From the NCBI GenBank assembly GCA_003971905.1, contig RSEE01000035.1, forward strand, positions 1-64,000: a stretch of 64,000 nt of DNA. The letters run 5' to 3'. Below are positions 30,360 to 60,300 of this stretch, in pieces (the first letter of the stretch is position 1; each line of letters begins with the position of its first letter). Under the pieces are notes generated by a model that saw only the letters and a program-made list of their open reading frames with translations, was not told the origin of the DNA and did not search any database. This stretch comes from Moniliella sp. 'wahieum' (lineage: Eukaryota). A program made the translations under genes and the position numbers.

Positions 30360-30500
30360 TGGGTGATAAGTTCCTTCCAGCGTGGAATGGTGGACCGGTG
30401 GCTAAGGTGGCGACGGGGGAACGGTGGCTACGGGGGCGAGCAAGCACCAAGCACCAAGCACCTGAGGCCTGACCGGGCCGTAGGCCCGGTGGCCCTCTAG
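30360..30500 (+). mobile_element. Helitron-like 3' terminus
   Basis: Hairpin accgggcc-gta-ggcccggt (30472-30490) ends 6 nt before terminal CTAG, which is followed by T. About 140 bp is homologous to 44393-44515 (inverted). 5' end not located. Confidence 0.72.
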
Positions 30501-32013
30501 TATAGAGATGATCTCGACGATATCAGAAGATGACATTGATATCGGAAGATGGCATTTTGATACGGCATTGATATATCGGAAGATGACATCGGAAAAGATG
30601 CTGTGACATGTGTGAGAGACACCACAGAAGAAGCAGCCACAGGCGACTCGGGCCGCAGCGCTAACGAGACAATAGCATACATTCGTTTAGCCTATAACGT
30701 GCTTTTTGACGGAGAGTGGAATGGATCCGTTAGGTCAATTGAAAACGCTTTGAAGAGTTGTGTGAGGACAGCAAGGCAGGGGCAGAAGTGGTGGGGATAC
30801 AATCAGGGGGAGAGGCAACCTGGAGGCGCAACAAGGAGGGGCGGACCACAGAGGCGGCCGAAAGGGGGGGCCGCGCACAAGAGCATGAGTCCGTTATTCG
30901 CGCAAATGTCTTCATCGGCGGTCGTAACAGGCCGTAGCAGCCGCACCGTAATAGTCCGAACGCTCTATGTAATCGGCTGCTGATGATTCGGGTTAAAAGC
31001 CTTTTCTTGTTGCCGACGGAATCCGGGCCTGTGTAGGCCTAATTCGCGGCATCGTTAAGAACATGGGACTGTGGATCCACCTCATATGCTTTTCAATTGA
31101 AGCTTGAAGGTTGAAGCTCTTCCCAAGTCAACTTCACAGCGAGATGGGCGATGCCAGACTTCTGTCTCACAGACGAGAGCGTAGCAGAAGTCGCTGACGT
31201 GTGACATGTGACATGCGATTAAAGATTCGCGATGCTGATGGTGACGCGGTGACGCACAGCCATCGGTCAACTCGGTCAGTTCGGTCAAATGACCGGCGAT
31301 AAAACAGCCGTTGTCACCGACCCAGTAGATGCATCTACGACCTTCTCCGACTCCTCACTTGAATAACCCCTGCCAACAAAACAACATAAGCCAGGGACGT
31401 TGCAGTGGGACAGAGGAAACGCTTGGTCCACCAAGTTGGGGACAATCTGGGGCAGCACTGGGGCAGCCTACGCTGGCGGCGTGGAATTTTCGGCTCCGAC
31501 GTGTGGCTTGTGGCGCTGTGCATCACGATGCGTGACGCGTGACGTGGGCTGAAGCAGGCTGAAGCAGAGGCACTCAACAGTGGTAACTCCGCTCTACGCC
31601 CGTCCATTCCATCCTCTTCCCTCGCCGATGAATTCGTTGAACGCAGGTCACACGTCACATTATACTTTGCTAGTTACCCACGTAACAATTGGATTGTTGA
31701 TCATGCATCATTGACATCATTGATGCATGATGACCGCAATACAATCGAACCACCCTGTTGCCCGCTCCCTTCGGCGGTCAACAGGCCCTCAGGATGCCGC
31801 CTCTCACGTCCTCAGCAATGCTGGTGGCAGCCTGTGAGGCCAAGCCGCACGGGCAGTGGTACCCGGCCCAGGCACTAACATCGTGACGCTGTTACGCTGT
31901 ACAGGTGCCTCACAAGCCAGGCCGGAAAGTATTTAAAGGCCTTTGTGTTTCTGTCAGCTGGTGACCACCACATCGCGCATCTCCTCCCACCTCTAGAGGC
32001 AACTACTTTCCAC

Positions 32014-33185: not shown

Positions 33186-33354
33186 TAGCGCTTCCAACTG
33201 CCGAGACATTATCTGCAATCGGTCTGCTGCCGTCTGATACGAGGGCAGGAGGTGAAATGAAGGCTGTAATCAATTGCTTTTCTTGGACTTGTGCGCCCGT
33301 ATTGCAGAGTGAGAAGCTGTAGCTGTTTTCGTATCACTTCCTCTTTCTATGTGT

Positions 33355-33571
33355 TGAGCTAGGTGGCTCGTGCTTTGGCCAATGTCCCTTCAGCTCCTCC
33401 TCAGCCTAGGAGTTCCGCGGTTTCCCCTCTCCTGTTTTCCTCGTCCAGCAGCTTAGCCCCTGATGGCGACTCGCTGCTTGATGTTCTTCTGTAGGCATTG
33501 CTGGTGGCCACACTACCACCACCAGTGCGATTGCATCACCTCGAGGACCATTAGGACTCCAGGTCTCATCA
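33355..33571 (-). repeat. Dispersed repeat family, copy B (inverted), ~110 bp upstream of the tRNA
   Basis: Reverse complement aligns with 18781-19042 and 46959-47213. Confidence 0.82.
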
Positions 33572-39754: not shown

Positions 39755-40505
39755 TTAGAAGAACTTGATGTACACAATAAAGACAAACAGAACGCCAATG
39801 GCACCCACTCTGACGAGAGACAAGAAAAGTTAGTCCATTTCGCAGAACATGCCAATCAGCCTAAGCTTCAGAAGCTACGCACGGTGCCCATTTGCGGATC
39901 ATGGCGTCAATGTTGATCTTCCGTGCCGACCTGCGGTACTTCAACGACTCGTCCCGCAGGGAGCTGGACATGGTTGACATTTGGTCCAGACTGTCCCCGC
40001 GCCAAAGAAGGTCCTCCATGTTCTTGGTCATGATGCGTGTTACGTCGGCCAGGTCCTCGTTGAGCTTGTCCAGGTTGCTCGACTTGACAGATTGGGCGGT
40101 GCGAGCATCGGCATAGAGTCGGGTGGTGCGTTGGATGAAGGTGTCAAACGCGACAAACGCATATGGTCGAAGTGTCCGCTGGGCTACTTGGGGTCCATGC
40201 GACTGGCCAAACTCCACAGCCAGTTCGTCGAGGTAGGCAAAGGCGAGCTTGCGCGGGTACGATTTTTCGCAAATGGCCACATACACTACCGCCGCTGGGT
40301 CGGGGGCGGGAGGGCGGACAAGGTAGTGAAGGGTCATCGCGCCACTTTCGATGCTGCAGCGCGGCTCGCTTCCGGGCCCCAGGCGACGGACAACGAGTTT
40401 GGCCTGCGCCGCATACTCGGCGAGTTGGGCCGAGTTCTGGTCCTCGCTGCTCTGCGCGAGCGGAAGACCATCGCTCACGCGCGCAATCAATGTGCCGCGC
40501 ACCAT
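39755..40505 (-). CDS. SEC22: R-SNARE Sec22 (longin + SNARE + C-terminal TM)
   Basis: MVRGTLIARVSDGLPLA, SYPRKLAFAYLDEL, RPYAFVAFDTFIQ, DVTRIMTKNMEDLLWRGDSLD. After an intron the TM reads VGAIGVLFVFIVYIKFF*. Confidence 0.96.
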
Positions 40506-41650
40506 GCCGGGCAAGGAGAGGGGCAGATGGCAACGGTGGGCGTCCGGGGATCTTCCACGTCTCGAAATCGGTCTGGGGCAGCCAGTAAATACCGCAGGAT
40601 CCCTTGAATCACACCGGAGGCCCGCCAGGCCCACACCCACCCTCGCCCACTCGCCCACCTGGCTGCAGCTGGCACGTGGGGATGCAGATTAGGTAAGACT
40701 CTCCTTCCCCCTAGTCCAAACCAGCTTTCGAGGCGGACGAGGGCGGACGCTGGTCGCCCATCCGCCGCAGGTGCTTACAACTAGCACCGTGCTGTTCGCA
40801 TCCCGCGCCGTCTTCTCCAACATTGGGAGAGCAGCCCTCTCTTGCGGCTGACACTCACTGGCGGTCACCGTGCGGAAGAGCCTTGCTGTTTGGTCCCCCG
40901 CCTGGCGTTCCTCGTACCGCGCCCGGGCGATGCTCCCTTCGCCCCTAGACTCAAAGTCGAAAGGCATTCCCAATCCCAGGCCCAAATAAGGCCATTTCTT
41001 TCCCGACATTGAAGAGTGCACCCACCAGATAGGCCGACTTGGCTCCCTCCGCCCTTCGACACCAGATCTCGTACCCGTTTGTTACCATATTACCCAAAGT
41101 ATTCGTCCAACGACGTCGTGTTTTATCGCAGAAACCACACGTTCTCTACCTCCTCATTCAGGCTTTCTTTTCAGTGCGCAATTATAGTCAACCACCCATT
41201 GACACATGTCCACCCCCCGAAGGAGTCTTGCCTCCTGTTAGTTCCAGATTCTATCACATCATGACGGGCCATTCGTTTTTGTAGATTGTGTGGTAGCGCC
41301 CTTTTTCATACTTGATGGGCATGGGAGATCGGCATAGGATCACGTCCACAGACGTCTCTCCGTATGACTTGGCACTGGGGTTCAAGCAAGACAATTGTAG
41401 GTCTCGCAGAGAAACCACACCAAGGTTGGAGAATTTTTTGCCGGCCCGGAAACAGCAAGTCCCAAGTGATAAAGCGTAGAGATCATCGGCTTCCGGCTAG
41501 GAAGCCCAAGAGAAAAGGATGAAGTGATGCGACTGTATTTGCGAGGCCCAGTTGGTAGGATGAAATGGGGGAGGTGACAAGGGACAGCGGCGATTTGGTG
41601 GCCATAACTGCCATTGATGGCCCCTCTTCAAGGACGGAAGAGACATATGC

Positions 41651-41944
41651 TTACTTGCTGCCCTGTTTAGCGGCAGCGTCCTCGTTCAAAGCAGTGCGCA
41701 GGCGAGCAAGTTGGCTGGCCATGAGGACGCGCTGGGGTGTCGCCCCTTCATCCTGAGCACTTCCCTCGCCAAAGGCGGCCGATGCAGCGTCGTGGGTCTC
41801 GGCATCGGGGGTGCGGGTTCGGGTGGCGTGCGCCGAAAGGAAGGAGGCAATTTCGGCAGCAGCAGCGGCAGAAGATACGGGAATGCCGCTTCCGGGAGCA
41901 ACGTGGATCTGCAGTGGTGGCCTCAGCGGTTCGTCAAGCCTCAT
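41651..41944 (-). CDS. Small protein resembling RNA polymerase I subunit Rpa14
   Basis: Pattern PPLQIHV..AAAEIASFLS..SQLARLRTAL resembles my recollection of Rpa14/Ker1. Clean 97-aa ORF. Confidence 0.5.
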   Translation of the reverse strand: MRLDEPLRPPLQIHVAPGSGIPVSSAAAAAEIASFLSAHATRTRTPDAETHDAASAAFGEGSAQDEGATPQRVLMASQLARLRTALNEDAAAKQGSK

Positions 41945-43003
41945 CCTGGTCAAGGTGGGGGAGTGTGTTACCGTTGCGGTCGGCACTGTCAGGTGGGGTG
42001 AAGAAAAAAAATGGAGCTGGAAAGGCGGAATTGCGCTGAGGATAATAAATGAGTGGTGATCGGTGATCGGTGAGGCCGCGGAATTTGCCTGGCGCCACTC
42101 CCCTGCCGCTCCCGCTCGAGCTGGCTACGCTAGCGGCTGAGCAGGACAGTGCCGCAAGGGTCTGTGGATCCTCATGGATAACTCAACTGAACAACTGGTC
42201 ATATCCATATGCAGTCGTTGCCTTTCTTCCTTCGAAGCACATCGATGGGTAAGCCGGGCAATTATTATGGGGCCAGTACTGAGCTGTGCGCGCTCACAGC
42301 TCAAATAGTGTGTGTGGGTGCGCGAGGCGATATATAACTCCGACTTATAATTGTAGCGACGATGAAATGCTCTCGGGGATCTCGCTTATTAATCTCGGTT
42401 CAGAATAACCGGAATGAAGGGGGAGAAGCATATCAGAGGATGTGGAGTGTATGTGGCTTAGGCTGTCACAGTCGGGACTAAGGCGGGCAGGGAGGCCAGA
42501 GTCGGGACTAGGGCAAGGACCGTATAGAAAGCGTTCGTGGTGTGGGAAAGAAGCAAAAGCAGATGACATGGTTCGATGTCGAATAAGAACAGGAAAGGAG
42601 CGATACGTTCGGGACAAAGACATTGGAAATGGTAGCGAGTCAGCCAAACTATGACAATTGCACCCTCCACATTATCCTTAGTAGTATAGGGTCAACAAAA
42701 CCCAAAACTCGCTCCGTCTCCACAGTTTAGAGAGAGGGATCGCGAGACACACAGACCAAAAGGGAAGCATCTGGATGTTGAAGCATCATCATGGTAAACA
42801 ACGTCCTCAGTCAGGCCTCTGATTCAACGGTATTATAGTCATGTTGCCCTTGAGGGGCATGTGGCAGCTAGTGGAGCAGACCTGTGGCCGTAGTGGATAT
42901 ACGCGGAGCATGATTCATGGACGGGGGGTAATCGCCGGCCCCTTCCGCCTCGGGCGTCCCGGGTCTTTCGTGATTTTTCAATTGTTTCGTTGTCATTTTT
43001 AAC

Positions 43004-43125
43004 GGAAGGAAGGAGAAGGAGAAGGAGAAGGAGAAGGAGAAGGAGAAGGAGAAGGAGAAGGAGAAGGAGAAGGAGAAGAGGAGAAGGAGAAGGAGAGAAG
43101 GAAGGAGGGAGAAGGAGAAGGAGAA
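43004..43125 (+). repeat. (GAGAAG)n polypurine microsatellite
   Basis: About 120 bp of near-perfect hexamer repeat. Confidence 0.95.
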
Positions 43126-44392
43126 CACAGCATCACCATTGGCATTGTAGCCTTTAGGTGAAAGCTTGTAACGTTCTGGATACACAGCGGACATCCGTGT
43201 TCCACATTATCAACACTACCTTAGGGTAATTGAGCGAGCAGCTGGTCTCACCGTACCATGATAACGTTCCAGTTTAGTATAATCCGAAGGCAGATCGAGG
43301 GTGCCTAGCATTTGTATGCAAGAACCCCTACTAGTCTGAAGATGATGTTTTTATCACGGGAACTTCGCCGTATGGTGGACGTTGAACCCATTGTGTTTTG
43401 AGTCTCAGAAGAGGGGAGAGACTTACCCATTTCCCCTGGGTGGTTGGCACTTTCGATACATGAAGGTGAAATGGGGAAGACGGATTGACGGTGCTGTGTG
43501 AATTACGCGAGAGCCAGCGGAGTGCGCTGGCTCTTCCCTTGCCAATCCCCATACCTGAGTTGCGGGCCGGGTGATCTTTGGCAAATATCCAGAAGAGCAA
43601 ATCTCTCTTCCAATGTGGGTCGCGTGTGTCAAACAGAGAGAGCCCCTCAAACCCCCTTTCGTTTCCCCGCCCCCCAACAAAACCCTTTTTGGCTCTGGCA
43701 CACCCGACGCGCCCGAAGCAAGCTAACAATCTCACTTACATCCACTATAACCAAACGAAAGAAAAAGATGAGCCAAAAATCCAATGCCCACTCAGAGGTT
43801 GGTCGTATAGAACAGACAGGAACCTGGCGCCGATCCTATATAGTATGCGCGCCCAACGACCGAGAAAATCAAAGACCTTACCCAGATGGCTTTCTCATGC
43901 ATAGCGTGTGGTTGACGGAGAGAAATAATGTGCGCATGCGGGTAGTAAGCACAACCCTCTCTCACACTTTGAGAAGCATATACCATCAACCTCACTGAGC
44001 CGAGGCTCCAGGTATTCCGCGGTAATTCCGTACCCCTTCCGTGGTATTCCGTAGTATGTCGTGGTATGTCGTGGTATGTCGTGGTGAATCCGTGTCATTT
44101 CGTGGCCATCGGGTTCTTGATCTTTTTTTCGTTCCGTGGTATGTTGTGGTGTTCCGTGGTATTCCGCGACATGTGGTGGTAGTCCGCGACATGTCGTGCC
44201 ATGTCGCGGTATGTCGGAGTGTTCCGTGGTGGGTTTTGCGAGGCGGCTAGAAATTCAAGGAAAGAGTCAGGCTCAAAAATCTCGACCTGGCAATCGGTAA
44301 TCAAATTTCATTACTGCAATGAAATGTTGAGAAAGAGCAACACTTGCGAGCGTGCAAAAATTTCGACCTGGCAATCAAGTAATGAAATTTCA

Positions 44393-44620
44393 CTAGAAGA
44401 CCACCGGGCCTACGGCCCGGCCAGCTGGGGCTTCGCCCCAGCTTGGTGCTTGGGCTTGCTCGCCACCGTAGCCACCGGCCCACCGTTCCACGCTGGAGGA
44501 TTTTTATCACCCACAAGGAGACCACCGGGCCGACGCGAAGCCCCAGCTGGTGCTTGGTCGCCACCGTAGCCACCGTGGAACCTTCGCCACCTTAGCCACC
44601 GTTCCCCCTTCGCCAACACT
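44393..44620 (-). mobile_element. Helitron-like 3' terminus (second copy, with partial tandem duplication)
   Basis: Reverse complement ends ccgggcc-gta-ggcccggtggtcttCTAG|T. Homologous to 30360-30500. The block is partly repeated at ~44520-44610. Confidence 0.7.
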
Positions 44621-45129
44621 GACACTTGCGAGCGTGCGACTTGGGAGCACACTCGGAAGAAGAATCGTTAGCCCGGCGTTGGGCTTGGAGAAAAAATGGT
44701 AGAGTGCAAAAGGGCAGCAGCACTCTCACTCAATCCTTTTCAAGGCTATTAAGAGCGCTTAGCACCTTATACACCTACAATAGCAGTCTTCTGCGTGTCT
44801 CTTTTGCACCTATGCCAACAGCTTCTGCTCGTGAGCCTTCGTCTTCGATCGATCCCAGTGCTTGATAGCTTCCAGTTCCACTGTGCATTTCTGATGCCGA
44901 TCTCCATTTGATTTCCGTTTCGTTTCACCAACAAAACAGTACCCAACAAAGGCAGCACGCATATTGTTTTGCCCTTCTTTTTCCTCGGGAATAAAATGTA
45001 CCTTGGCACACGCAACACTTATAGTGTTTTTTGTCAGACACCAAGTTCGGCACCCAATGGGTGAGGGTAAATCCAAACCTCCTCGTCAGAAACGTCGTCA
45101 TCCGCTGCAATTCGTGCTAATGCATCCGA

Positions 45130-46310
45130 ACTCAGAACTTCCTTCTCAAGGGTATGTGTCCCATGACCCACCCAATGTCGGCAAGTGGGACGACAATGTT
45201 GTTTACTGATGCGAACGTCGCTCTGTGAAAGCCTTGTTCATCGCGTGGTAGAGACGCATTACCTTCAGCATCAATCGGATGAGTTCTACCAACAATGTAG
45301 TATTCGGAGCCCGCTTCATCGGTCTCCACCCCAATGTAGTAGTCAATCAACATGAAAAAGTGCCCATCGTGCGCCAATTGCTATACAATGCCTGCATTTG
45401 TTGTGAGTAGTTGCACACAGTGTCCTAGACGGGACGAGGCATTCTGACCCTGTTGCCCTCGAACACGTTGCCTGTTCTCATTTTTGGCCCCCACTCGGCT
45501 ACTGCCCAGATCGATAAATGGGCGGTAGGGTCAATGTTGAACGAGCACAGCAACGCCGCATCCCCCCTTGCACCATCGAGCCCATCAATAATAGCTTCTC
45601 GTTTGTGATTCAACCCAACCGAAAGTGTGGTCATAGCTTGGGGAGCATGGAATCCATGCGAATGCCAACCAAGTTATCCTGGTTCCTCCTGCTCGCCTCG
45701 TTAGCAAGGACAGGATACGGTTTGGTAAACGAACGGATATGGCGGCCCAACCATCCCTGTTCCCATTCTGCCGGGGCGGTCCATATCGCCTGCCAATTGC
45801 CGTATCTCCACATGTTGTCAGCCCAATGAAGAGTGTTGTGCACCGAGATCGAATGTGGTTGATCTCTTCGTTCAGACCGTTTGGAACAGTGAAGTCGTGA
45901 AACCGTGACAAAATGGCAGGGCCGTTGTTCGGAGACGTTCGACGTCGGTAGCATACATTTCCGTTTGACAAACAGCCTAAGCATCACGCTCCCACCAGAT
46001 CGAGTATCTGCTGAGGCAGATAATGCAACTTGACGAACGGATAAAGCATGCAACTCATATTGACTGCAATCTCAAACATGCGCATGCCGCTGTTACAAGC
46101 AGAACCAATCGAACGAGGCACTCCACTACAAAACGAAGAAGGAAGAAACCTAATCGACCTGTGTTTCAAGGTTAGCTCATTCAAATCAGTATAAGAAACA
46201 CAACTGTTTCGGGAATGAGGACGCACACTTCATCTGAAACTCGTTAAAAAGGTCAACATGAGCGGCACCCAAATGTATGGGCAATCTTGGATCACGTAGA
46301 CCGTTCTTCT
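45130..46310 (-). pseudogene. Unidentified, degraded intron-containing coding sequence inside the TIR element
   Basis: Successive coding-like frames (e.g. HDGHFFMLIDYYIGVETDE, REAIIDGLDGARGDAALL) and a gtgcgt..gctaac..cacag intron-like segment. No family recognised. Confidence 0.35.
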
Positions 46311-46958
46311 CAGATTGAGAAAGGTGGTGTGCATGGGCTCAACAGGATGAAAGGAAGGGCACATATGATGATGAGAGGCGCTTTCAGGTTGAGGTAATGT
46401 CGGCCATCCTGTATCTGCCTTGAAACAATTCTGGCTTGCGACTGACCCATGGTCTTCAAGCTCTTGTGCGTTGTACTCTGCAGTTTGACCCAGTCTTCGG
46501 GTATGCGCAACGGAGAATGGATGGTATCAATATCATCGCTTCCGTCGCCCAGCAGCGGGCAATTTCAGAGGGATGTGTTGTCGTTGGCCAATATACCCCA
46601 CCCCCATGCCTCTTGCGCCCAACAATATCGCAAGGGCGGCACGCTCGCTCGGGACACACTTGCCATAGATGTGCTTGCTGTGCTTTAGCGTCAGCGATGT
46701 TGTACATTACCGTGGTCTGAAGAGTAAACGACTCCAGGGGGCGGACCAGGGGGCGGACCAGGAGGCGGACATGATGATGGAGAGGACCGAGGGGAAAACC
46801 TGGCGAAGACGTGGAGAGTGGACCATCATGAGGGCCAGAGGGTGATATGTACTCCTTTGGAGCTCCGCGGACGTTCCCGGGGCCTCATTTGCCGCATCGC
46901 ACACGGCTATATACTCCACAGGAGCGTACATGTGCCGGCCCTCGGATGGGTGGACTTT

Positions 46959-47213
46959 TGATGAAACCTGGAGTCTGGATGGTCCTCGAGGGTGATACAA
47001 TCGCACTGATGGTGGTGGTGGTGATGGTGGTCTAAGTCAACCAGCAACCCCTACAGAGGAGCATCAAGCTTCAGACAGCGAGTCGCCACCAGGGGCAAAA
47101 CTGCGGACCAAGGACAACCAGGAGGGAGGAAACAAAACGGAACTCCTAGGCCGGCTTGAGGAGGACCTGAAGGGACGTTGGCAAAAGCACGGGCCACCCG
47201 GTGGCTCAGCAGG
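46959..47213 (+). repeat. Dispersed repeat family, copy C
   Basis: Aligns with 18781-19042 and the reverse complement of 33355-33571. Confidence 0.85.
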
Positions 47214-47685
47214 ACTGTTGGGACGTAATAAATGGTACGTTTAGAGCTCTTTGAGGCGCCAGGAGCTCTCGGAGCTCGGTGGCGTGTGGGTATGCTGCGG
47301 AGGTTGCCAGGGGCTGTTCCCACACGACAGCGCAGGGCTAATATGCTGAGCTGTGGGGGGTCCGTGCGTCGGCGTTACTGGTCTGTGCACCTTCCCACCA
47401 GAACCACACTGCTTTTGCTCTGTTGCATCAGTCCTCCTCTTACCGCCCCTTTCACAGTTGAATGATATATATACCCCCCCCCCCTCCCCCCCTCCACACC
47501 GGTCTCTCTTCCCCCTAACAACCGCCTTCCCGACATGCCTATCACTATAATTTCCACACTTCCTGCAGACCAACCGAAGACCAAAACTGGGGTAAGGTGC
47601 TAACCAAAGATCTGTCGGCATCTCAACAACTGATGCCTGCTGTCCTGTTGGCGACCAACCAATCGTCCCAGTACTGTCTTTGCTA

Positions 47686-47806
47686 GGTGTACTGACCTGC
47701 TGGGTGTACTGACCTGCTGTTGGGTGTACTGACCTGCTGGGTATACTGACCTGCTGCTGGTACTGACCTGCTGGGAGTACTGATCTGCTTCTTGGGTACT
47801 AACCTC
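47686..47806 (+). repeat. Minisatellite, ~7 copies of 17-20 bp gggtgtactgacctgct(gtt)
   Basis: Direct reading; copies are contiguous with no unique spacers. Confidence 0.9.
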
Positions 47807-48900
47807 TTCCTACAAGTGGGTACTTACATGCTTGGGCACTGACTTACATGGTATGCATGTTGGTATCATATATCAACCTCTGATGTGCTTGGTATGTTAA
47901 CCCGTACTTCCGCAGTGAGAATTACCGATAGCATGTCAAAGGGAGCATGCCACCATTTGTGATATCAAGCAACGGTACGATCGATTGCTGTGTGGATGGA
48001 ACTTGCGCGCGAGGCGGCCCCATTCTGCCTGTTCTGCCCCTTCCTGTTGCGCCTTCACGCTGCGTTTCCCTGATTAACGGCCTGAGGCCTGATTGCATCT
48101 TCTCCACCAGTATTGCCTTGCCTTGCTTGCCTCCCGTAGCACACCTTAGTAATACAATCACTATTAGCCCAACAGAGATGTCCCATATATCTAAAGGATC
48201 TAAAGTAACACAACTGCCAATGAGGCTAGTGAGGGCCGCATATAGGCCCCCAAAGTATTGAGCAATGTAACCCTGTACCGATACATTGCATTATAAGCTA
48301 ACCCTAAGGCTTATAAGCTAACCCTAGTGTAACCCTAGGACGCCATTTCCATTCCGTGGTAACCCGTGGTAACCCTTGGTAACCCGTGGAGTTCTGTGGT
48401 GTTTCCGTGGTTGAAAAAAAATTCTAACCTGTGTGGTGTGTCTATGGATTTCGTTCTCACTTTTTTTCAAGATGGAGGGGCGCACTTATCCCATAGAATA
48501 CAACAGTATGAACACGGAACGGGCACGGAAGAGGTACGGAAGAGGTACGGAAGAGGTACGGAAGTGGTACGAAGGGCACGGAAGTGGTACGGAAGTGGTA
48601 CGGAAGAGTACGGAAGTGGTACGAAATGGGCGGAAGTGGTACGGAAGTGGTACGGAAGAGGTACGGAAGTGGTACGGAACGGGCACGGAAGTGGTACGGA
48701 AGAGGTACGGAAGAGGTACGGAAGTGGTACGGAAGAAGTACGGAACGGGCACGGTATGCCACGGAATCCAAACTACGGAATACTACGGAATACCACGGGA
48801 GGGGTACGGAATCACCGCGGAATACCTGGAGCCTCGGATCAGTGAGCATCAACAGTACACCATATATAGCGTGCTCAATGATCGGAGTGTGGTGTACATG

Positions 48901-51900
48901 CCATAGCTAATCGAAATTTCTAGCCCAGAACCTTGCCGGCCACACCACAAGCTTGTCTTTAGATTTGAGGGGCACAACCTTGTCACAGCCTCGCCAACAC
49001 AGCTAGCCCCAACCTCTTGGACCACACTGCGGCAAGGCCGCCCAGCGAGGTTGTCCCTAGATTGCTGCCTATAAAGCTCGTCACAACCTTGCCCGCTATT
49101 CTAATCACAATATATTGTGAACGGCGGCCAGCCTCGAGCCATCTTAAAAAAGATGGCCCACCCACGAACTAACCTGAGGTTTCTCCAGCCAACAGTAGGA
49201 ATTGGCCGTTGCACCATTGGAGCCTAAGACTCCCGCAGCAATTTGGCAATCTTTGGGCAGCCACACGTGCTGTGTCCGCTTTCAGCCAAATCGCTAAAAA
49301 CTGATAGACTGATGGTGTAGAGTATACATCAACAGTGGTGACTACCATCATTAGTAGCCATTCGGGAAATATCTAAACATCCATTGCGGATTGTACTGCC
49401 TCCAAAACATCGTCGGCAGAAGGGACATTCTCGCCCTCGACCGCCCAGTCCTGGGCAAAAGCCAAGTCCGCAAGTCGCAGAATATCGGTGTGGGGAGAGA
49501 CAGAGTTGACAAAGTGGTTGAGCACGTAGCGCTGCACCGCCGACGTCCCAGACAAGTTGTTGTGCTGGACCCCATCGAACGTCAAGCCAGTGGTTGTATC
49601 CGTAATGCTGTTGGGGACAACCCGGCACTTGGCCTTCACGCAATTGTGCTGGACGTTAAGCGGGCCAAAGATGGTGTGGATCTGTGAAGCCGGAATGTAA
49701 GTCATGCGTCGGGCGGACGCGCGCGGTAGCTCCAGGCCTCGCATGTCATATGCCGAGTCGATAGGCATGATGCGAGCCAAAGCGACCTTGACCCAAAGCA
49801 CAGGGAGCACAAGGTTGGAACCAGTCCTCGCTGCTCCCGACCCCCCCTCGCGAGTCGGATTGGCCCGCGGGTGCACAGCAACCATATTATTAGGCCGTTG
49901 GGCGGCAATGTGTTCTATCCGGCCAATGGAGAAGGGCGGTGCATCAGGATTCTGGGCATGGCGGGGTGGGGGACTTCACCAATATCCTGTTGGGCAATAA
50001 GCACCCAGTCCCCCCTGGCACAAAGCTGGCCATGCTGTACGCGGACCAACGGCATGTCGACAATATCTTCGACCGGCCCAGTGGCAGAACGCCCCTCTGC
50101 TGTCACTTGTTCAGGAAGCCCAACCTTGTCGTGCACCGATATGACTTTGGCCTTAGCCACAGTCTGGATCGAAGCCGGACACGATCCAGCGCTGGAAGGG
50201 CTGTTGCGGCCCATACCGGGTGCGGGAGGGACTTGCCACACACTGCCGAGCCCTTGGCCCAAGAGCTGAATCGTCGTGCCAGCCTGAGGCGGCGCAACAT
50301 TCAATTGCAAAGCTGCTCGGCCCCTGCCGATCCAGACGTCTGCGGACAATTTCTTGGTGTTCCACCGGGCAGACCCTGTTCGCCTCCTCCCCTTCATCGT
50401 CAGGGGTTGTATCGCGGGACACGAGTTTTGCACGCGGCATGTCGATTGCCCGCCCTCCACATAGCAGGTTTTGCAGGTTCTCCTGGGCTGCTACCTTGTA
50501 GTTCAAGTCGCGGCAGATATCTTTGCGGTTCGTAAATATGACGGCCTTGCGCATGACGCGGACAAACTCCTCCTCACGCTGCGTGTCAGCGTTCTTGAGA
50601 GGACCCCACAACAGCGCCTGCTGGGAGAGGTGACTCAGAAGGTGGAACTTGGGGCGATGAACGAGCATGGCCGGGTCGATGGCAGCGATGGCCATGAAAT
50701 GTGAATCACCGCCTTGTCAAGCAGTTCCTGTGGGACATATGTACGGGGCAAAATGTAAGCTGCGAACTAGGACTATAGCGAAGATGATCACGGGCCTAGG
50801 AGAGCGATAGCAGTTTCAGACGTACGCCATATGTAGCCCGGTCTTGAAATGCGAAGCCATCGATGTAGCAAAGCCACTTAATGCGTGCGGCGGCCACAAT
50901 GCACTTGCGGACATTCTCCAGCCTCTCAATCTTGCTCAGAAGTCTCTGTCTCGCCATTTCCGTGACGCCGGGCTTGGTGGAGTCCAACCGTAGCATGGCC
51001 GCCAAGTTGGGCAGCACCAGAGGGAGAGTCTGGCACAATATCTTGCAGTCGACCCCCGTGACTGAGCGCATGCTGTGAACCACTTTAGTGCCATTGAGCC
51101 GTCGACGCACCGATTCCATGCCCCGCGAGTTGAGCGAATCCAGCCACAGCGCTAGCGAGGACCCCTTGTCGAAGTTCGAGTCCGTCAGCAGCTCGATCGA
51201 GGCCTTGACTGGTCCAAGGAGAACTGTGTGCATGACGTCGATCGCCAGGCTCTTGCCGACCGAGAAACTCGAGCACCCCTGCCATTCGTGGACAGTCAAA
51301 AGGGGGTTGAACACGTAGCCGTTGTTCTTGAACTCATCCAGCAGCTCACGAACGTCGGAGTCCAAATTGGAAAGCAGCCTCTTGCGCTTCTTGCCATTCG
51401 TCGCCCCTGCTGAGTCCTCCAGAGTCTTGCGGAACTTGAACAGGATAAAGGATACGTCTTTCATGTACTTGTCGTTAACCCCGGTCTGGCTCCCCCGGTC
51501 GTCGACACGGCCGTCGTTCTTGACGACCATGTCGAGTTGGTGATCGACTTCGCGCCTAGTTTCGATACTTGAACGTAGATCGCCTCCCATCTTGATGTGT
51601 CCGCCGGTAATGGTCAGTCCCATATTTTGATATGCACAGCAGTAACACCAGTGGTGTCGTATACGCACCAGACAGTCTGCCACGTTCTCCGCCAACGTGT
51701 TCGTTCCCCGTTGCCGTCCGCAATCGCAAAAACGGCAGCACACGTGGGCAGTCATGCCCATAATGGAAGCCATCTCGTTCGCGGCCACGTTGTCGCCCTT
51801 TATCATCCCGCAACGGGCTGTACAAGGATCCATCCCTCGGTGGTCGAATCCCAGACAGGGATGAGCTCTTCGTGATCCTGCCTGCAAGTTCGAAAAAGAC

Positions 51901-53805
51901 GTTAGCATGCTGCTTTTGCCCAGGAATCACGGCGACTTCAAAGGCAACTTGGCTTAGATTGCGATACTCACTTAGGGTTCTAGCTGTTTTACCAACTGCT
52001 CACACAACGGGAGGAGAGACTTGGCCGTTTCCGATGCAAAGAGGAAAAGGTTCCTTGCCCATCTAGACTGCGACCGTGAAACGTGCATGTTGCCCAGCAG
52101 CATGCTGTTCAGAGAGCTTGGCCGATTGGACACATTGTCTGCAAAACCATCAGCCCAGCCCACTAGCTGGAGACGGACCAGAGCTCGGCCACAGGCCTTG
52201 GCTCGAAGGGGATTGACGCTCTTCCCAATTTCCTCACCGTCCCTTGTTCCTGTGTCGTACCAGGATGTGGAAGTCATCAGTCAACCCGACAAGAATTGCC
52301 GCTGCGTGAAGAGCAAGAAAACTTACTAATGGTATAGTCGTCGTAGAGGCGCAACTTGGTTATGTCCAACTGAGTAAGAATGAAGGCGCGTGTCCTGTTG
52401 CCGGTGAACTTCAGCAGGTTGGACGTCTCGTCTTGGACCAGGTCGATTCCGATCCCGTGCCACGAGTCGCTATCAGCGTCGTGTTGCCACAAGACGGGAA
52501 AGATAGGCGCGAAATGCTGACCAGGTGAACAGATTCGCCAAGGTACATGTGAATGGCCAGATCGCGTGGATGCTTATTGAGCATGACCATCGGCTGAGTC
52601 CTTGTGCCGATCAGATCCCATCGTCCCTTGTGTGGTTCTTCAATGAACCCGTCCTTGAGGGCCTGGACAATCGCCCTGAGCGACCAGGGATTGGGATACT
52701 GTGACATCTTGGAGCGGATGGACGAGTTCGAGGACATGTATGAGGTGGAAAATGCGGTCTCGCCCGCGAAGGACCCAATGTATATCGTCTCCTGATACAA
52801 ACTGCTCGATACACACGAGGGCTGGCACACCGTCTCGATTGCCTTTTAGTTTTGTTGAGCGAGTAAAGAGAGGCAATTTCCCTTCGCTCTTGACCGCGAC
52901 TTGTGCGAATGCGGTTCTCTCGCAACGAGACGGTTGGACTGGAGTATCGTGCTGTATATAGCTGCTGTCACGACTATCTCAAGTGCGTAGCTTAAAAAAA
53001 TCTATATATATACTAAACGCTCAGGCTGCAGGTGGGCGCCTTGAGCTGGCGGTGGCGTGGGGGGGCAACACTGGCGCCATGCGGGTGGACCACCGGTGGG
53101 CCACCGGTGGTTGCGCCTATAACCGCACGGATCATCGTTCGCCGTATGGTTGCGGGACTCATTCTCCCTCTCGAACGCGATGACGCTTCGTCCCCACGCC
53201 GCAAGTTGTATGGCTCTTGTATCTTTGCCCTTCGATCCCTATCATCTCCGTGTCCCCATGATGTTTTTGGTCTGCGATTAAACGACGAAGGCAAAATTCT
53301 GTGGTTGCCGCCGTCCCGAGGCTCCTCGAACAACCTGCCGTTGCCTTGGCGCTCCTCTACGTCTCTGTGTCTAAACAACCATGGCAATGCATGCTTTTAA
53401 AGATAATCCACTGCCTGATCTGATAGCATCGTGGCACCCTAGCCGCCACCCTAGCCACCACCCTAGCCACCACCCTAGCCACCACCCTAGCCACCGCCCT
53501 AGCCACGCCCTAGCCACCGCCCTAGCCACCGCCCTAGCCGCCAGTCTAGTGAAAAATCTGTGGCTAGCCTTGCCACCAGCCTGCCAGCAAGGCTGCGGAC
53601 TGTCCGGGGATAGGTGGGGGGTAGCTGGGGGTAACCTGGGGCCAAGTTGTCGGGTATAGATTGTCTCGACCTTGGCGACCATCTTGCGCAAGCTTTTCTT
53701 GTACAGGGTTGTGGCACTTCTAATCATAGACTCACGGTATCAAATTCTTACCTTGAGGCGAGATCGGCGGCAACGTTGTGACTAGAAATTTCGATTAGCT
53801 ATGTG
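48901..53805 (-). mobile_element. CMC (EnSpm/Mirage-like) DNA transposon, ~4.9 kb, probable 2-bp TSD TG
   Basis: TIR C(A)CATAGCTAATCGAAATTTCTAG at 48901 and reverse complement ending at 53805. TG flanks both ends. Subterminal (CCCTAGCCACCA)n at 53436-53545. Internal transposase. Confidence 0.87.
49373..52950 (-). CDS. Fungal EnSpm/CMC-type transposase, divergent, with introns and frameshifts
   Basis: Ordered family motifs WADGFADNVS, GDNVAANE..CCRFC, FNPLL..IDVMHTVLLGPVK, RPKFHLLSHL..WGP..TQREEEF..TNR..RD, NVQHNC..C. 5' end uncertain. Confidence 0.8.
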
Positions 53806-55796
53806 TGATCATGCAGGGACCCAGGCCAGGACGACTTGGAGGTCGTTGACCGATTGTGGATGAGAGGTCTTTCCGAGTCTCCTACGCCCTGTCTCTGTGG
53901 TAGACGCCTATAAACCTTTGCTTCATTGAAAAGTATTTCCTTCTCCCTAGCTCGGTTTCGATCCACCGCCAAACCCAAGCACCAAATTGTCGCAAGTCGA
54001 GACCCCACTGCAGTCTTCAGGAAGACATTGCACCCCTATAAAATATCCGGGCGGACTCCCAGGATGGGGCCCACCATGACATTCTGTCTATAGGAAGCCA
54101 TGCTCATACAAGATTGTGCCATTTATTCATTGTCAGGGGTGTCTCGGTTCATACCGTCCGTGACATACTCAAGAGGGTGATCCCCGTCAAATTCTCAGGC
54201 AAGCCGCGGGGACGACGTTTTTGTCGAGATATGCGTCACCCTATCATTGACCCCGCTGTCGACTGGAGCCCATAAACACGCTTAGGTGTTGAACATGTGA
54301 TGGCATTAATTGAATCAAAACAGTTGAGAGGAAGCAGCCATGTTTGGTGGTGATATGGTTGCGTGTTTTCAACGGAAGTGAGGTCTGCTACAGTTGTATT
54401 ATGGGATGATATAGGTGGGTGTCGTAGTTTGGTGGCAAAATGAAAGTCTTTGGGTGACAGCATACCCCCGCAAAACAATCCATCCTTCAGCGAAGAAACC
54501 GACTTGTGTACGTGGCACGTTACTGATTCACCTCACTCGATGACTGTAGCGTATTTGGCTTCCTTCTTTAGCGTTGCAAGAGGGAGGCAATCCAAAAGGA
54601 CACCTCTCTGTTGCTCTAAATGCGTGGGGCGATTAGAGCATTGCTGGCTTCCCTCTGTGAGATTTATATACGGTTGAGAGCAGCAGGGCAGATCATCAAA
54701 AGGCACGGTGGCAGGCGCCGACACAAATAATGGGCGCAAATTCGTCATATATGGAGCCACAATCAGATGGAGAGACCCAACTCACGAATTTATACAGCTT
54801 GCGCGACCGCCGACGTGCGAACACATTGAATTGTACTCGCACTAGTAAGTATGAACAGTATACTTGGGCTGGTGCTGTGCTGATGGGCTTTCTTGATGCG
54901 ACGGTAGCACAGCCCATCTTATAGCGAGTGCCACACCGTGCTCCAAATAGGGGTGTGCTCTCCGATATGACGAGCTACGAAACTGTCGGTGAGAGACTGT
55001 CTATTCCTCCCATCCGCGTTGCCGATGAACTGAAGCACAGGCAAAGCACAGCGGAAGACGCGTATATGATACAAAGGCTACGGTAATGGTTTGACAGTCG
55101 GGGCACTAAGGCGAGGGAGACCAGAGTTGACACAAGGTCGATGAATGTACGAATCGTTGGTGGGGAAAAAACATGCCAAAACAGAGGTCGTGGAGCGAAA
55201 CAGAAAAACAGGGAAAGAGCGAGACGCTCGAGAGGCGAAGTACTGTTGCTACCCTATACTCTCACATAGGAGTTGCCTACAGCGATGCCGCGCGAAGCCA
55301 AAGAGAGGTGTTTTTGTGTATGCCGGGAAACATGAGAGGTAGGGAGGAAAAGAAGGCAGATGGGTTGGATAAATTGGGGAACGGACAGGAGGTATATGTA
55401 CTTCATGAAGGAAGTGGGAACAGCTGAAAGGTGGTCGCAGGAATTCGTGCATGTTATAAATAGGAATCACGCTGTAGGGGCCCACAGATTGGGTCAAGAC
55501 CCTCTCCCCCAGCATATGAAGCGAGTCTGACACTCCCAACGATGCTGTGGGCACCTTTTTGGGTCTCTCCTTCGACGATGTTCAAATCGTAAACCGACAC
55601 TAGCTCGACGATAACGAGTTGATGGACAATTCTCCACACTAACCGTAAGGTCGTAAGAGGAGAAAAACGCCATTCAGATATTAACTGATAGTACAGATCT
55701 ATTTCACTTGTGGGCCAGAACTGATGACTGAAGAGGAGTTTGGCTTTGTTTTATGGACTGCGGAAAGTCACCGTCGTTCAATATCAATTTTCCATC

Positions 55797-56184
55797 AAAG
55801 GGAAAGGAAAGGGAAAGGGAAAGGGAAGGGAAAGGAAAGGGAAAGGGAAAGGGGAAAGGGAAAGGGAAGGGAAAGGGAGAAGGAAAGGGAAAGGGAAAGG
55901 GAACGACTGTTGCTTTGAGATCAAAAAAGGTGACACAAGAGTATTGCGAGAGAGACTGATTTTTGGTCTTGCGAACTACATGCACCATAGCAATGATATC
56001 TGAGGGGGGAAAGGGAAAGGGAAAGGTAAAGGGAAAGGGAAAGGGAAAGGAAAGGGAAAGGGAAGGGAAAGGGCCGGTGATACGACTGTTGCTTTGAGAT
56101 CAAAAAGGTGACAGCAAGAGTATTGCGAGGAGAGAGACTGATGTTTTGGTCTTGCGAACTACATGCACCATAGCATGATATCTG
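55797..56184 (+). repeat. Two (GGGAAA)n tracts, each followed by the same ~100-bp unit (tandem duplication)
   Basis: Tracts at ~55797-55902 and ~56004-56072. The unit acgactgttgctttgagatc..gatatctg occurs at ~55903-56002 and ~56082-56184. Confidence 0.92.
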
Positions 56185-56355: not shown

Positions 56356-56620
56356 CGTTGCACCGTGGCTGCTCTGAGTAGTAGCACTGCCCTATAGTTG
56401 GAGATTTTGGTCTAGACTTGGCCTGCGCCGCGCCCCCACGCGCCACCTCCACTTTATTCCAATGGGAAACCGCCCGTGTATAGTAGACACCGCTGGCGCA
56501 TCCCTCCGCTGTTCTTCCTTACCACCCCCACTTCGCTCAACTCGTTACCTCGTTCTCGATCATGCTTCTGGTAGCTCAGATCTCAGACCACGCATCTGCC
56601 TGCCGTAGTACGTCGCTGCA
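56356..56620. mobile_element. Short solo LTR related to 29988-30239, 4-bp TSD TTTC
   Basis: cgttgc (TG changed to CG)...gctgCA, with TTTC on both sides (56352-56355, 56621-56624). Shares internal motifs with the 29988 copy. Confidence 0.6.
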
Positions 56621-56874
56621 TTTCACTCGCACTTTTGTCACGGCGTATTCAGACAACCGCTTTATTAGGGCTTTTGCGATCTATTAGGTACAATGCGATC
56701 AATGGGTCGATGAGCGCTCCAAGATCGTGTGTGCTGGAGGGGCGTCTTTGGGGGTGCTAGCAATGCATGGGTGTGGCGCGTGGATCGTGACGCGTGGCTG
56801 GTGGAGGTTGGAGTGGCAATTTAAGTTTAGGTGATTGTGGCTGTAGCCACAGCCGCAGGGCATTCTAGAGCGGC

Positions 56875-59800
56875 TGTGACATGTGACATGCGTCATCACA
56901 TGTGAAGCTTGAAGCTTGCAGCTTGAAGGCTGTCCGAGACAGCAGAAAACTTACCAATAGCAGCCACCAGCATCAGTGCATCAGAGCCAGACAGCGAGGG
57001 CATGAGTACGCCCAAACTGAGTTTTCTGATAGTGTACCTGCGCATCAAAGATGGACGTCAAGGCGTCGCGTCAGCCTATATTATTTGCTCTGTGGCTCAG
57101 CGCGCTTCGCTCAGGCTGAGCATGACGCTCATATCAATATTCAATGGACGGTTTAGGACGGGGGAACTTGTATAGCCCAAATTAAAACGTGCGAATGCCG
57201 CCAATGGTCGCAGATAGAACCAGCACGGCAGCTGCAAGATCCACGACTCGGTACTCAGGCTAAGGCCCTAGGCCCCAGGCGGCCTGGCCTGACCGTGACC
57301 GGGGCCTGACGGTGCCCTGGCCCTGACCGGACTAACATGTAACAGGATGTCTGCGACCCAGGGTACCTAGCATCCTAAGGTCTAAGATCAAACCGGTAAC
57401 CGGCAACCGGTAATCTCGGGGATGTAAGGCCCAAGGACCCTTCTGTTGGGCCCTTTTTGGGGCTTGATGACATGCATGATGCATGATGATGATGCATGAT
57501 ACATGATGCATGATGTTGATGCTTGATGTATGGAGAATGGACCTCCAGAGACACTTTGCCACATGAAAGCGGTCTACTGCTAATCACTGGTCACCGTCAC
57601 TAGTCATAGTCACTAATAGCTTCAGCTTCACTCGCTTCAAGCTTCAAGCTTCAAGCTTGAATCGACTGGTATAATGAGTGCATCCTACGGTGCCCTGCCG
57701 GTGCCCTGCCAGCCCTGCCAGCCCTGCCGGGGCGGCCTCGCACGAGGCGCTAGCGAGCTCCACCAAGCTCCACTCCTGCGGCCGAAGGCGCTGTGTGAGT
57801 GGTGCCCAAGCCACCCCCATTGCAGCGAGGGCGCGGGTCCCTGTGTCGCATTCTGAAAACTGTGCCAGGCGCCAGCCCAGGGCTGCGATCTGAGATTATC
57901 GAGACTATCTGAGATCTGAATCTGAGATGGATCACCGATTGTCGACCCCCACTCCCGTCTCACGCGTCACGTTCACACGCAGAGACGACGATCTGGGCGT
58001 GCCCGATCCAGGATTCTGGAGAACAAGGGTTTGGAAGGGTCCCGAATTCTGGGCCAGACTAGCTGGTTGCACGTTGCTCGCAACCTGGCTAGTCGTTACA
58101 TGTTTCTTGTCGGAATACATGATGCATGATGCATGATGCATGAATATGAATGGGGCTCTGGCGACCGGATGTTGGATGTCCTCGATCATCGATCATCGAT
58201 CATCGATCATCGGCCATGCATCCACCCCGTACCACGCCCTTCTACGCCCTGCTCTGCCCTGTCCTGCCCTCCCAGGCCCTTCCATACACCACCCCACAAG
58301 CCAAGGTATGACATGTGCGTGCAATCTGACTCACATGTGCACGTGCCGGGCAAAGCAGAAGGACGTGCGAGGTTTGTGATGCGAAGGGTGAGATCTGAGA
58401 ATTGATCATCGATCAAATGTCACACATCGACGTGTGGCTGAGTACGCGAGTGCGCTGTGACCGTCAGCTCTCAGGATGAGGCAGGCATACGGCCCTGAAG
58501 GGCCGAAGCCCTAGCGAGGGTGGTTATATAGTGTAGGGGAGCCAACCAAAACGACACCTACTCACGGGACGTCACCAGCCAGTTGCCTCTAGGTCTGGTC
58601 GGTGGACCAGAACAGCAGATGCGAGAACCATGGGCTTAAACCTGAGGCGTAAGGCTCTGGCGTGAGGCTCACAGGCTTGACAAGATGTGCTTCAAGCTAT
58701 TTCGAGGTGAAGGAGCGAAGGAGCTTGAAGAGTTGGCCACAGACCCGACCCACTCGGTGACTGAGAAACGTATCGATGAGGCTGGATTCCATGTACGATG
58801 CGATGAAGTCACACCATTCCGCATCATGAGCATCATGCATCTTCATGCACACCGAGGGCCATACTGAGTGTTATTGCCGCGTCAGTCGAGGGAGCGATGG
58901 GAACATTCTCGACCTCTCAACGGCTGAATCCAGGAATACCCCATGCTCGACTGTAGCCTGTCTGTTGGTGTATAGCACCATCTATCTACCTTGCCTTGTC
59001 GCTCCGTGTATCCAGAAAGAGCGCACTGGTTTTTAATGCTGTGTGTGGTTACCGGTTACCGGTTATATCGCGGGTATATACCCACAATACTCCACCGTCC
59101 ATCTCATCCACTATACGTGACGCATGTGGGATGCTGGACTCGGACCGATGAGAGGGCGATTGAGGGCCCCGCGCGAAGACTGTGATACATGTGATGCATG
59201 TGAGCGTGAGCGGCTGAGCGCGCGGTAACCCGGTGACCCGGTGACAAGACTACACTAAACACACGTTTAACGTTAAAACGTTAGCGATACGGAATACTTC
59301 TTTAGGTGTCCGAGCCATGTGGGCCGAGCTGAAGCGCGAGGCGCTGATGCCTCAAGCTGAGGCCCTCTCGGGCCTCAGGCGCCTCAGGCCGCCTCAGGGC
59401 CGCGCCCGCCGCGAGAAGGCGACGGATGAGATGCGCGTGAGGGTATTGTGAGCACACGGGGGCACATGTGTTTCTTCCTGGAATAGGCTGCGGTTGCCGC
59501 TTGCCCCGGTTATTGAGTTGCGGGGTACGGGGTACACGTTAGATACATGAGTTGCAAACGTAGGACTGTTTACTAGTTGGCTGCGGCGAACCTCCTGTAA
59601 AAATGCATAATGCGGTGGAGCCCTTCTCATAACCGGCATAACCTCTTTCCTCAGGATTTGGGTCGCGACCTGCCGCTGCCCAGCGCTATGCGCTATAGAA
59701 TCCGTTCACGTTCACCGTTTGGCCTTCACGCGGTATGGAGGGCGACCTGTATTATGCCACACACTTGTATTAACTATACCCAAGCGCGGCAGCCCACGCT

Positions 59801-60300
59801 GAGGCGCTGTGATACATGTGAGCGCGCTGAGGCCATAAGCTTAAGTTTTAAGAGCTTTAAGATCTAAGATCTAAGAAACTGGCCACGGTTATGTGGTGAG
59901 CAGTATGATTAACGGCCTTAAGGTCTTGGTCGCGCGGTGAGGGCCTGCCTCAGGCGGTCGGCCGGTCAGGAACCCTCAAAGACTCAGATCGCGAGATCAG
60001 AGCGGGGAAGAGATGACGCGTGATGTGTGAGGAGCGATGCATGATGCATGATGCTCTGATGAAGTCGAAAACGCGTTCCCGCGTTTATGAGCGCAGAGCA
60101 GGCATCATGCATCATGCATCTCGTATATATCATCGATCACTAGTCACTAGTCACTAGTTGCTAGTCACTGATCTCGATCATTGATCACCAACACTATGAC
60201 ACATTAAAGATTGACGCGTGACGTATTAACCCATCACTCGATCGTAGTGTGACCGGCAATACTCTACAGTACTAAGTACGCAGTCTGAGTGCTAAGCTAA
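56875..60300. repeat. Dense field of period-7 palindromic micro-arrays (ANNNNT-N)n
   Basis: Examples: (AAGCTT-C)n 57635-57660, (ATGCAT-G)n 58118-58143, (ATCGAT-C)n 58183-58211, (ACCGGT-T)n 59047-59065, (AGATCT-A)n 59858-59875, (ACTAGT-C)n 60137-60160. Confidence 0.9.

Follow-up and report, generated by a model that had tools for sequence, protein, structure and literature searches.

Cuts staggered by 7 bp are rare among eukaryotic DNA transposons. A full-text literature search listed few groups that duplicate 7 bp at the target site (target site duplication, TSD), namely, Galileo/P, hAT7, Kyakuja, and Dada, along with single mentions in papers on Mutator, RAG-like, and GingerRoot elements and on Repbase; the first-pass annotation of the DNA described here was right to call such duplications uncommon. 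That DNA is a stretch of 64,000 nucleotides from Moniliella sp. 'wahieum' (assembly GCA_003971905.1, contig RSEE01000035.1, positions 1 to 64,000; hereafter, the window). It carries a 4,856-bp element at 43991-48846, bounded by terminal inverted repeats (TIRs) and a 7-bp TSD, as well as many short tandem arrays of period 7. On balance, the explanation we favor is that the element is an inactive copy of a transposon family that inserts at nnTnAnn, excises through flank hairpins, and is possibly of the CMCT (CACTA/Plavaka/Transib) type.

Several described systems come close in one feature or another. In the CMCT clade, as excerpted from PMC12730594, termini are mostly CA..TG, the duplications span 2-5 bp, and the last catalytic E is preceded by an H(3-4)H motif. 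The same excerpts give 7-bp TSDs for Kyakuja-1_LB and Kyakuja-2_LB, with Kyakuja having CA..TG termini and no TIRs, and report hAT7 families with 7-bp TSDs in rust fungi (Pucciniales). Galileo, in Drosophila, has the 7-bp TSD consensus GTAGTAC (PMC2775673, in excerpt). Muta1, a Mutator-like element (MULE)/foldback transposon of Aedes aegypti, is described in the excerpted text of PMC5499845 as having a long TIR built from a 10-bp imperfect palindromic tip and 12-bp subterminal tandem repeats, 8-9 bp TSDs, and a flank hairpin of 43+43 nt, and as excising precisely in over 90% of cases in yeast. Ac/Ds excision joints, described from yeasts and plants, are centered on the complement of the base adjoining the element and are thus odd palindromes (PMC5873905, in excerpt). 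In Cryptococcus, according to excerpts of two preprints (bioRxiv 2024.08.15.608186, 2025.05.19.654958), KDZ elements have 8-bp TSDs (4-8 bp for KDZ2 and KDZ3), and the EnSpm-like CNEST and another element, CNIRT6, have TSDs of 2 bp and 3 bp, respectively. Dada targets the genes of tRNAs or small nuclear RNAs. The element described here has what defines a cut-and-paste TIR transposon in general, i.e., terminal inverted repeats with a directly flanking TSD, but it departs from every named group compared in at least one tested defining feature. Its ends are as follows.

43984..43990, no strand: left TSD copy, CATCAAC, read directly
43991..44068, plus strand: left TIR, whose tip CTCACTGAG is a 9-nt palindrome centered on C
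48769..48846, minus strand: right TIR, from inverted-end pairing
48847..48853, no strand: right TSD copy, CATCAAC, read directly

The two TIR arms are 78 nt long and 91% complementary. In a gapped alignment, 64 of the outermost 67 nt agree, in line with the ∼65-bp TIRs claimed in the first-pass annotation; beyond these, both ends decay into repeat arrays. The terminal 22-mer has two matches in the window, both at the TIRs, and none in 100 shuffled sequences. Moreover, 43991-48846 is the sole inverted-end pair in the window flanked by a direct repeat of at least 4 bp, whereas in 10 shuffles, pairs with a 4-bp repeat averaged 0.1 and no pair had a longer one. The flanking repeat is exact over 7 bp and carries T and A at positions 3 and 5, respectively, which bears out two further claims of the annotation, a perfect 7-bp TSD with central TCA and a fit to the target NN-TNA-NN. 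An 8-bp duplication (ccatcaac), which it had allowed for, fails on the sequence as given, where the flanks disagree (CCATCAAC versus GCATCAAC and CATCAACC versus CATCAACA). The termini of the element read CT..AG, with CACTG beginning at base 3 (bases 3-7). We are highly confident that 43991-48846 is genuinely a transposon copy, now dead, with a TSD of 7 bp; the copy is old and inactive and belongs to the cut-and-paste DNA transposons.

Other searches around the ends yielded little. Rebuilding the empty site restores no long open reading frame (ORF) over the junction, the longest encoding 184 aa with a mere 50 nt of its length on the right-hand side, and we rejected insertion into a coding exon. 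No tRNA was found at 40000-52000 and no Rfam family at 42000-51000, so the site lacks the small RNA genes into which Dada inserts. When metagenomes were scanned with 20 nt taken from the TIR, a single chance match turned up, in a GC-rich, coding-like contig, with just 21 nt in common. At 48874-48888, 28 nt past the right end, lies the 15-mer CTCAATGATCGGAGT, a look-alike of the TIR tip apart from 3 mismatches. It was considered as a second TIR tip and rejected, as such matches occur at chance number in the window (5 versus 7.7 expected) and its position alone is odd.

Just inside the TIRs are arrays of short motifs:

44027..44238, plus strand: left subterminal array, ∼10-nt units with core TTCCGT / GTCGTG, 12 copies interrupted by a single gap of 65 nt
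48342..48400, plus strand: short internal array, 10-nt units oriented like the left end
48492..48764, minus strand: right subterminal array, 11-nt units reading ACGGAAGWGGT on the plus strand, ∼21 copies

These confirm the subterminal tandem repeats noted earlier at both ends, with 10-nt units on the left and 11-nt units on the right. The tandem stretch of the right array at 48514-48745 contains 21.5 copies with 84% matches. The core, TTCCGT/ACGGAA, points in opposite directions at the two ends of the element, and densities of at least 6 core-motif matches per 200 nt occur in the window only at these arrays, over a background of 0.25. Transposase binding sites usually look like this, as short motifs arrayed in inverted orientation inside the transposon ends. 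Adjoining the right subterminal arrays, at 48293-48340, are the telomere-like words AACCCTAA, AACCCTAG, and AACCCTAG.

The first-pass annotation proposed that the family of this element writes the period-7 arrays, and the arrays themselves follow a regular pattern. Perfect arrays of at least 3 copies number 8 at period 7, compared with 1, 1, 0, and 1 at periods 4, 5, 8, and 9. There are 30 period-7 runs of at least 16 nt versus 0.18 in shuffled sequences; the unit is palindromic around its middle base in 24 of these, and all 24 are of the form nnTnAnn. The lengths of palindromic-unit runs peak at 12 nt (31 versus 4.45 expected) and 19 nt (7 runs), with single runs at 26 and 33 nt and no peak at 14, 21, or 28 nt. 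In other words, run lengths obey a 5+7n rule (12, 19, 26, 33 nt). The elementary 12-mer is xyTNA + y'x' + xyTNA, in which y'x' is the inverted complement of xy. Loci with this 5+2+5 structure number 74 in the window versus 7.7 in shuffles, and the subset with T..A numbers 49 versus 0.24. The enrichment is confined to period 7 (72 versus 8.7) and period 9 (8 versus 0.3). Whole, nonpalindromic 7-mers whose third base is T and fifth base A (T3/A5) are also doubled around 2 inverted-complement bases (5 loci versus 0.07 in shuffles), and others are doubled around a single such base. The doubled 7-mers, together with two shorter footprint-like loci within the element, are listed here.

7293, no strand: GATGAGG-CC-GATGAGG, 7-mer + 2 bases + 7-mer
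18811, no strand: CCTGATG-CA-CCTGATG, 7-mer + 2 bases + 7-mer
28240, no strand: GATGAAG-TC-GATGAAG, 7-mer + 2 bases + 7-mer
28371, no strand: TGTCATG-C-TGTCATG, 7-mer + 1 base + 7-mer
31240, no strand: GGTGACG-C-GGTGACG, 7-mer + 1 base + 7-mer
47864..47875, no strand: footprint-like 12-mer TATCA TA TATCA, within the element
48079..48092, no strand: footprint-like run GG CCTGAGG CCTGA, within the element
48190..48205, no strand: TCTAAAG-GA-TCTAAAG, 7-mer + 2 bases + 7-mer, footprint-like, within the element
59628, no strand: CATAACC-GG-CATAACC, 7-mer + 2 bases + 7-mer

One locus offers a view of "before and after." The sequence at 18797-18826 reads CCTGAGG CCTGAGG CCTGATG CA CCTGATG, and two paralogue copies have a single 8-nt counterpart, so that the difference is a 23-nt insertion of 7+7+9 at CCTGATG. 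The joints of the period-8 and period-9 forms are even palindromes (GG|CC, TG|CA). Footprint-like loci are clustered: they are densest at 56500-61200, with ∼30 in less than 5 kb and adjacent arrays of different units, and further clusters lie at 18200-19500, 27700-28300, and 31100-31700.

Four other origins were tried and set aside. Stacks of intact 7-bp TSDs would have lengths of 14, 21, and 28 nt, not the 12, 19, 26, and 33 nt observed. A 5-bp TSD plus 2 P-nucleotides explains the 12-mers, but not the doubled whole 7-mers or the 7+7+9 insertion. A 3-bp TNA duplication would yield period 3 or perfect even palindromes, and a hAT duplication of 8 bp overlapping by 1 nt would yield A-N-T, not T-N-A. 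It is the period-8 and period-9 cases that decide between the array models; in them, whole nonpalindromic 7-mers are doubled.

How could such arrays arise? In the mechanism we propose, the family would insert with a 7-bp stagger at nnTnAnn, duplicating a 7-bp unit in which T3 and A5 are set and the outer positions are free. On excision, the cut would seal the flanking DNA into hairpins, which the host would open ∼2 nt off the tip, so that 2 inverted-complement bases (P-nucleotides) are gained. If the other flank lost 2 nt before the two were joined, the product would be xyTNA-y'x'-xyTNA, a net gain of 7 bp with the joint y'x'xy. Since the resulting palindromic heptamer would again be a target, each new visit could add 7 bp and build period-7 arrays of 12, 19, 26, and 33 nt. 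The 5+7n rule requires 2 inverted-complement bases per joint, and the palindromic flanks would therefore stem from repair rather than from target choice. By the same logic, CATCAAC fits the system even though its outer bases are not complementary: it is an outlier among the array units but typical of the 29 inferred ancestral 7-bp targets, which include CATCAAT at 31721 and TATCAAC at 47864. We consider it likely that the heptamer loci are the excision footprints of a hairpin-type system with a 7-bp stagger and an nnTnAnn target. A limited literature search found no description of palindromic heptamer arrays as stacked excision footprints, which is not proof of absence.

A number of observations sit poorly with this mechanism. 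The T..A pair is missing from 25 of the 74 5+2+5 loci, versus ∼7.4 expected. Among the 29 inferred targets, position 1 is C/G in 22 and its mirror position 7 in 13, an asymmetry that a symmetric target does not predict. Two arrays break the rule, GGTGATC (×2.7 at 42055-42073), whose spacers are not the inverted complement, and CAAGCAC (×3.1 at 30441-30462), which has no TNA. Neighboring units that differ by a complementary center base, which 4-nt P-additions would give, are absent from the window. Finally, we assume that several 16-nt runs are arrays of three copies that have undergone a point change.

Does the element belong to the system that wrote these footprints? We think that it probably does. 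A link is plausible because a 7-bp, nnTnAnn-directed process has acted all over the window, and to this extent the first-pass annotation anticipated our reading, except that the arrays are not stacked intact TSDs. The link is also favored because 7-bp staggers are rare, yet the element and the arrays share one 64-kb window. Alternatively, the element could be real but unrelated to the arrays, with its T3/A5 match due to chance and the arrays written by another family with the same stagger or by slippage at hairpin-prone palindromes. We regard this as unlikely, though it has the following in its favor and to the detriment of the link. There is one copy of the element and hence a single TSD observation, in which T3/A5 would occur by chance in ∼1/16 of cases. 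In addition, no TIR copy was found next to or within any period-7 array of the window. Slippage, on the other hand, leaves unexplained the fixed T..A, the inverted-complement spacers, and the whole-7-mer forms of periods 8 and 9, and a chance match would have to account for a rare 7-bp stagger appearing twice in so short a stretch.

The interior of the element holds clues to the enzyme that may have moved it. Its longest stop-to-stop ORF is 185 aa, and none of its 77 stop-to-stop ORFs of at least 45 aa reaches the Pfam cutoff. However, one ORF, at 45634-46071 on the minus strand, matched 2 proteins among 1.84 billion representatives, with E values of 6e-4 and 8.8e-4; these database proteins are referred to here as P0001 and P0002. 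The BLASTP match of this ORF covers 71 aa at 37% identity. The surrounding region can be described as follows.

45135..46821, minus strand: decayed transposase-like gene, with colinear P0001 matches in different frames

By tblastn, residues 218-288 of P0001 match 45852-45640 (E = 7e-10) and residues 116-144 match 46151-46065 (E = 0.007). These two main pieces are colinear and spaced near expectation, and they lie in different frames, suggesting a frameshifted pseudogene. A weak third piece lies at 46821-46777 (E = 21), where the D of the D..H in P0001 is replaced. In a three-way alignment of the remnant, P0001, and P0002, the invariant residues are S-V-H-x-x-L-H-x-A-D, then G, then E. The E is exactly 20 residues past the second H in all three, and in the remnant this H(3)H-20-E motif is at ∼45852-45770. 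Upstream, at 46641, the remnant has a CRPC.

Attempts to name the remnant gave leads at best. In a language-model Atlas, P0001 is nearest to unnamed, mostly basidiomycete clusters, which we treat as leads and not tests; under the same caution, the 30 named clusters near it include 13 of Plavaka, 4 of Transposase_21, 2 of DUF4218, and 0 of KDZ. Three word-indexed protein searches (with an 82-aa ORF, P0001, and alignment A5) found nothing besides P0001 itself, a cluster look-up gave no names, and a PDB sequence search with P0001 gave chance-level matches alone. AlphaFold2 run on alignment A5 reached a mean pLDDT of 34, which is unusable. When the ORFs of the element were compared by tblastn with the window, they matched two dispersed repeats (A and B, described below) and no second transposase remnant.

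There is moderate support for reading the interior as the frameshifted remnant of the element's own putative transposase-like gene. If so, the copy has decayed or lost internal sequence and could be mobilized only with an enzyme from elsewhere. The first-pass annotation called the element nonautonomous and cargo-carrying. Of these, the former agrees with the lack of an intact transposase, while the latter is unsupported because the interior consists of a transposase-like remnant and pieces of dispersed repeats, and Pfam recognized no host gene in the 77 ORFs.

As for the enzyme itself, the element appears to work as a hairpin-type cut-and-paste element, and the remnant points weakly to the CMCT clade. 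We would tentatively suggest that the enzyme may have been CMCT-like, based on the CACTG near the element tip, the subterminal arrays, and the remnant's H(3)H with its E at +20. Flank hairpins are known for Transib/RAG, whose joints are even palindromes, and this chemistry agrees with the even P-nucleotide joints seen here. Even joints argue against a hAT-type enzyme and for one that is RAG/Transib-like or MULE-like. Several features count against a CMCT identity. The termini of the element are CT..AG, in contrast to the mostly CA..TG termini of the clade, and its 7-bp TSD exceeds the 2-5 bp reported, both according to the excerpts of PMC12730594. The element matches none of the Pfam families Plavaka, Transposase_21, and DUF4218; P0001 has no Pfam match even at E = 10 and is missing the C(2)C motif. 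The remnant could also derive from another element, a piece of which became trapped in this one. An enzyme in or near the CMCT group is thus suggested more weakly than the footprints or the element itself.

Three other groups could supply the enzyme. A nonautonomous fungal hAT7 member whose hAT excision wrote the arrays would account for a 7-bp TSD in a fungal setting, as in the rust fungi (PMC12730594, in excerpt), and hATs carry short subterminal repeats and leave P-nucleotide footprints (PMC5873905, in excerpt). We nevertheless find this improbable. The hAT7 starts among the consensus rows listed (CAACGGTGGG, CAACACTGGG, CAACAGTGGG, and CAGCGATGGG) are unlike the element tip CTCACTGAG, and the period-8 and period-9 joints here are even, in contrast to the odd, one-base-centered joints of Ac/Ds, among whose reported outcomes, as excerpted, the building of tandem arrays does not appear. 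No hAT family was found in the 77 ORFs at E values up to 0.1, though a decayed gene could escape detection, and the remnant motif is of another type.

The element might instead be Mutator-like or foldback, in the style of Muta1 but from a lineage with a shorter stagger, a reading we rate as no less improbable than that of a hAT7. The 9-nt palindromic tip and the 10-11-nt subterminal repeats do resemble those of Muta1, and a transposon that cuts through a flank hairpin of 43+43 nt has a counterpart in the flank hairpin proposed here (PMC5499845, in excerpt). Against this, Muta1 has a TSD of 8-9 bp, excises mostly precisely in yeast, and encodes a MULE transposase; the TSD here is 7 bp (not 8 or more), no MULE domain was found in the 77 ORFs, and the look-alikes of the remnant are of the CACTA/Plavaka type.

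Membership in Kyakuja, the KDZ group of mushrooms (Agaricomycotina), is the most improbable of the three. It shares with our element a 7-bp TSD, reported for Kyakuja-1_LB and Kyakuja-2_LB, and a fungal host (PMC12730594, in excerpt), and the closest look-alikes of the remnant are mostly basidiomycete, which is a lead only. Yet Kyakuja has CA..TG termini, no TIRs, and a KDZ transposase, whereas the element has a TIR of 67-78 nt. None of the 14 Kyakuja consensus starts listed (CAC.., GAG.., GAC.., CAG..) is like the element tip, PF18758 (KDZ) is unmatched in the 77 ORFs and in P0001, and KDZ is absent from the 30 named Atlas clusters. Galileo/P is similar in its 7-bp TSD with a symmetric consensus, its long TIRs, and its many copies without coding capacity, but, as excerpted, its target GTAGTAC differs from CATCAAC and nnTnAnn, it is described from Drosophila, and no P-type (THAP) domain was found in the ORFs of the element.

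Returning to the CMCT reading, its fullest version is possible but doubtful: 43991-48846 would be the dead copy of a fungal CACTA/Transib/RAG relative with a 7-bp nnTnAnn stagger and flank-hairpin excision that left scars at ∼1 per 1.3 kb of the window. Equally doubtful is the corollary that these scars would resemble coding joints with 2 P-nucleotides, stacking into palindromic heptanucleotide microsatellites.

The remainder of the element's interior includes these repeats:

44392..44615, no strand: piece of dispersed repeat B, 78-91% identical over pieces to window 30360-30501 on the opposite strand
46978..47212, no strand: piece of dispersed repeat A, 76-77% identical to 18823-19041 (plus strand) and 33362-33571 (minus strand)
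47681..47797, no strand: internal 17-nt tandem repeat, ∼6 copies

Repeat A is ∼220 nt long, lacks inverted ends, and has 3 copies in the window, delimited as 18820-19041, 33352-33555, and 46978-47212, with 76-81% identity; two are inverted and 14.3 kb apart, and the third is within the element. A second small dispersed repeat, of ∼150-190 nt and 75-78% identity, occurs at 5926-6105, 42464-42652, and 55097-55240. GA-rich hexamer arrays lie at 43009-43125, ∼0.9 kb left of the element, and at 55797-56184, and a 12-nt array, CACCCTAGCCAC, is repeated 9 times at 53435-53543.

The window opens with 4.5 copies of CCTAAC at positions 1-27, and the first gene fragments follow 0.5-2.5 kb after the start of this repeat. 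Pfam was run on 97 of the 106 window ORFs of at least 140 aa; of the remainder, 6 lie in the element and were covered by the Pfam search described above, and 3, at 2.5-3.5 kb, are overlapping. No transposase domain was found in these 97; housekeeping genes alone matched. They comprise a CBM48/alpha-amylase glycogen-branching pair, GCV_H, a longin-synaptobrevin, a Forkhead protein, an oxidoreductase of the old-yellow-enzyme type, and an AMP-binding/PP-binding enzyme. Judging from the repeat, the window start reads as a telomere and thus as a chromosome end, which, given the eukaryotic housekeeping genes, would be that of an opisthokont, most likely a fungus.

Taken alone, the element is one more dead transposon copy, and an ordinary one. 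If its link to the arrays is true, however, this genome would hold a natural record of excision through hairpins and of end joining, one that could reveal the preference of the host in opening hairpins without an experiment. It would also show a transposon both seeding and extending heptanucleotide microsatellites, and the lineage that bears this TIR would enlarge the small set of eukaryotic groups with duplications of 7 bp. If, in addition, the remnant is truly CMCT, the range of staggers in that clade would be widened, with a bearing on the cut spacing of RAG-like enzymes.

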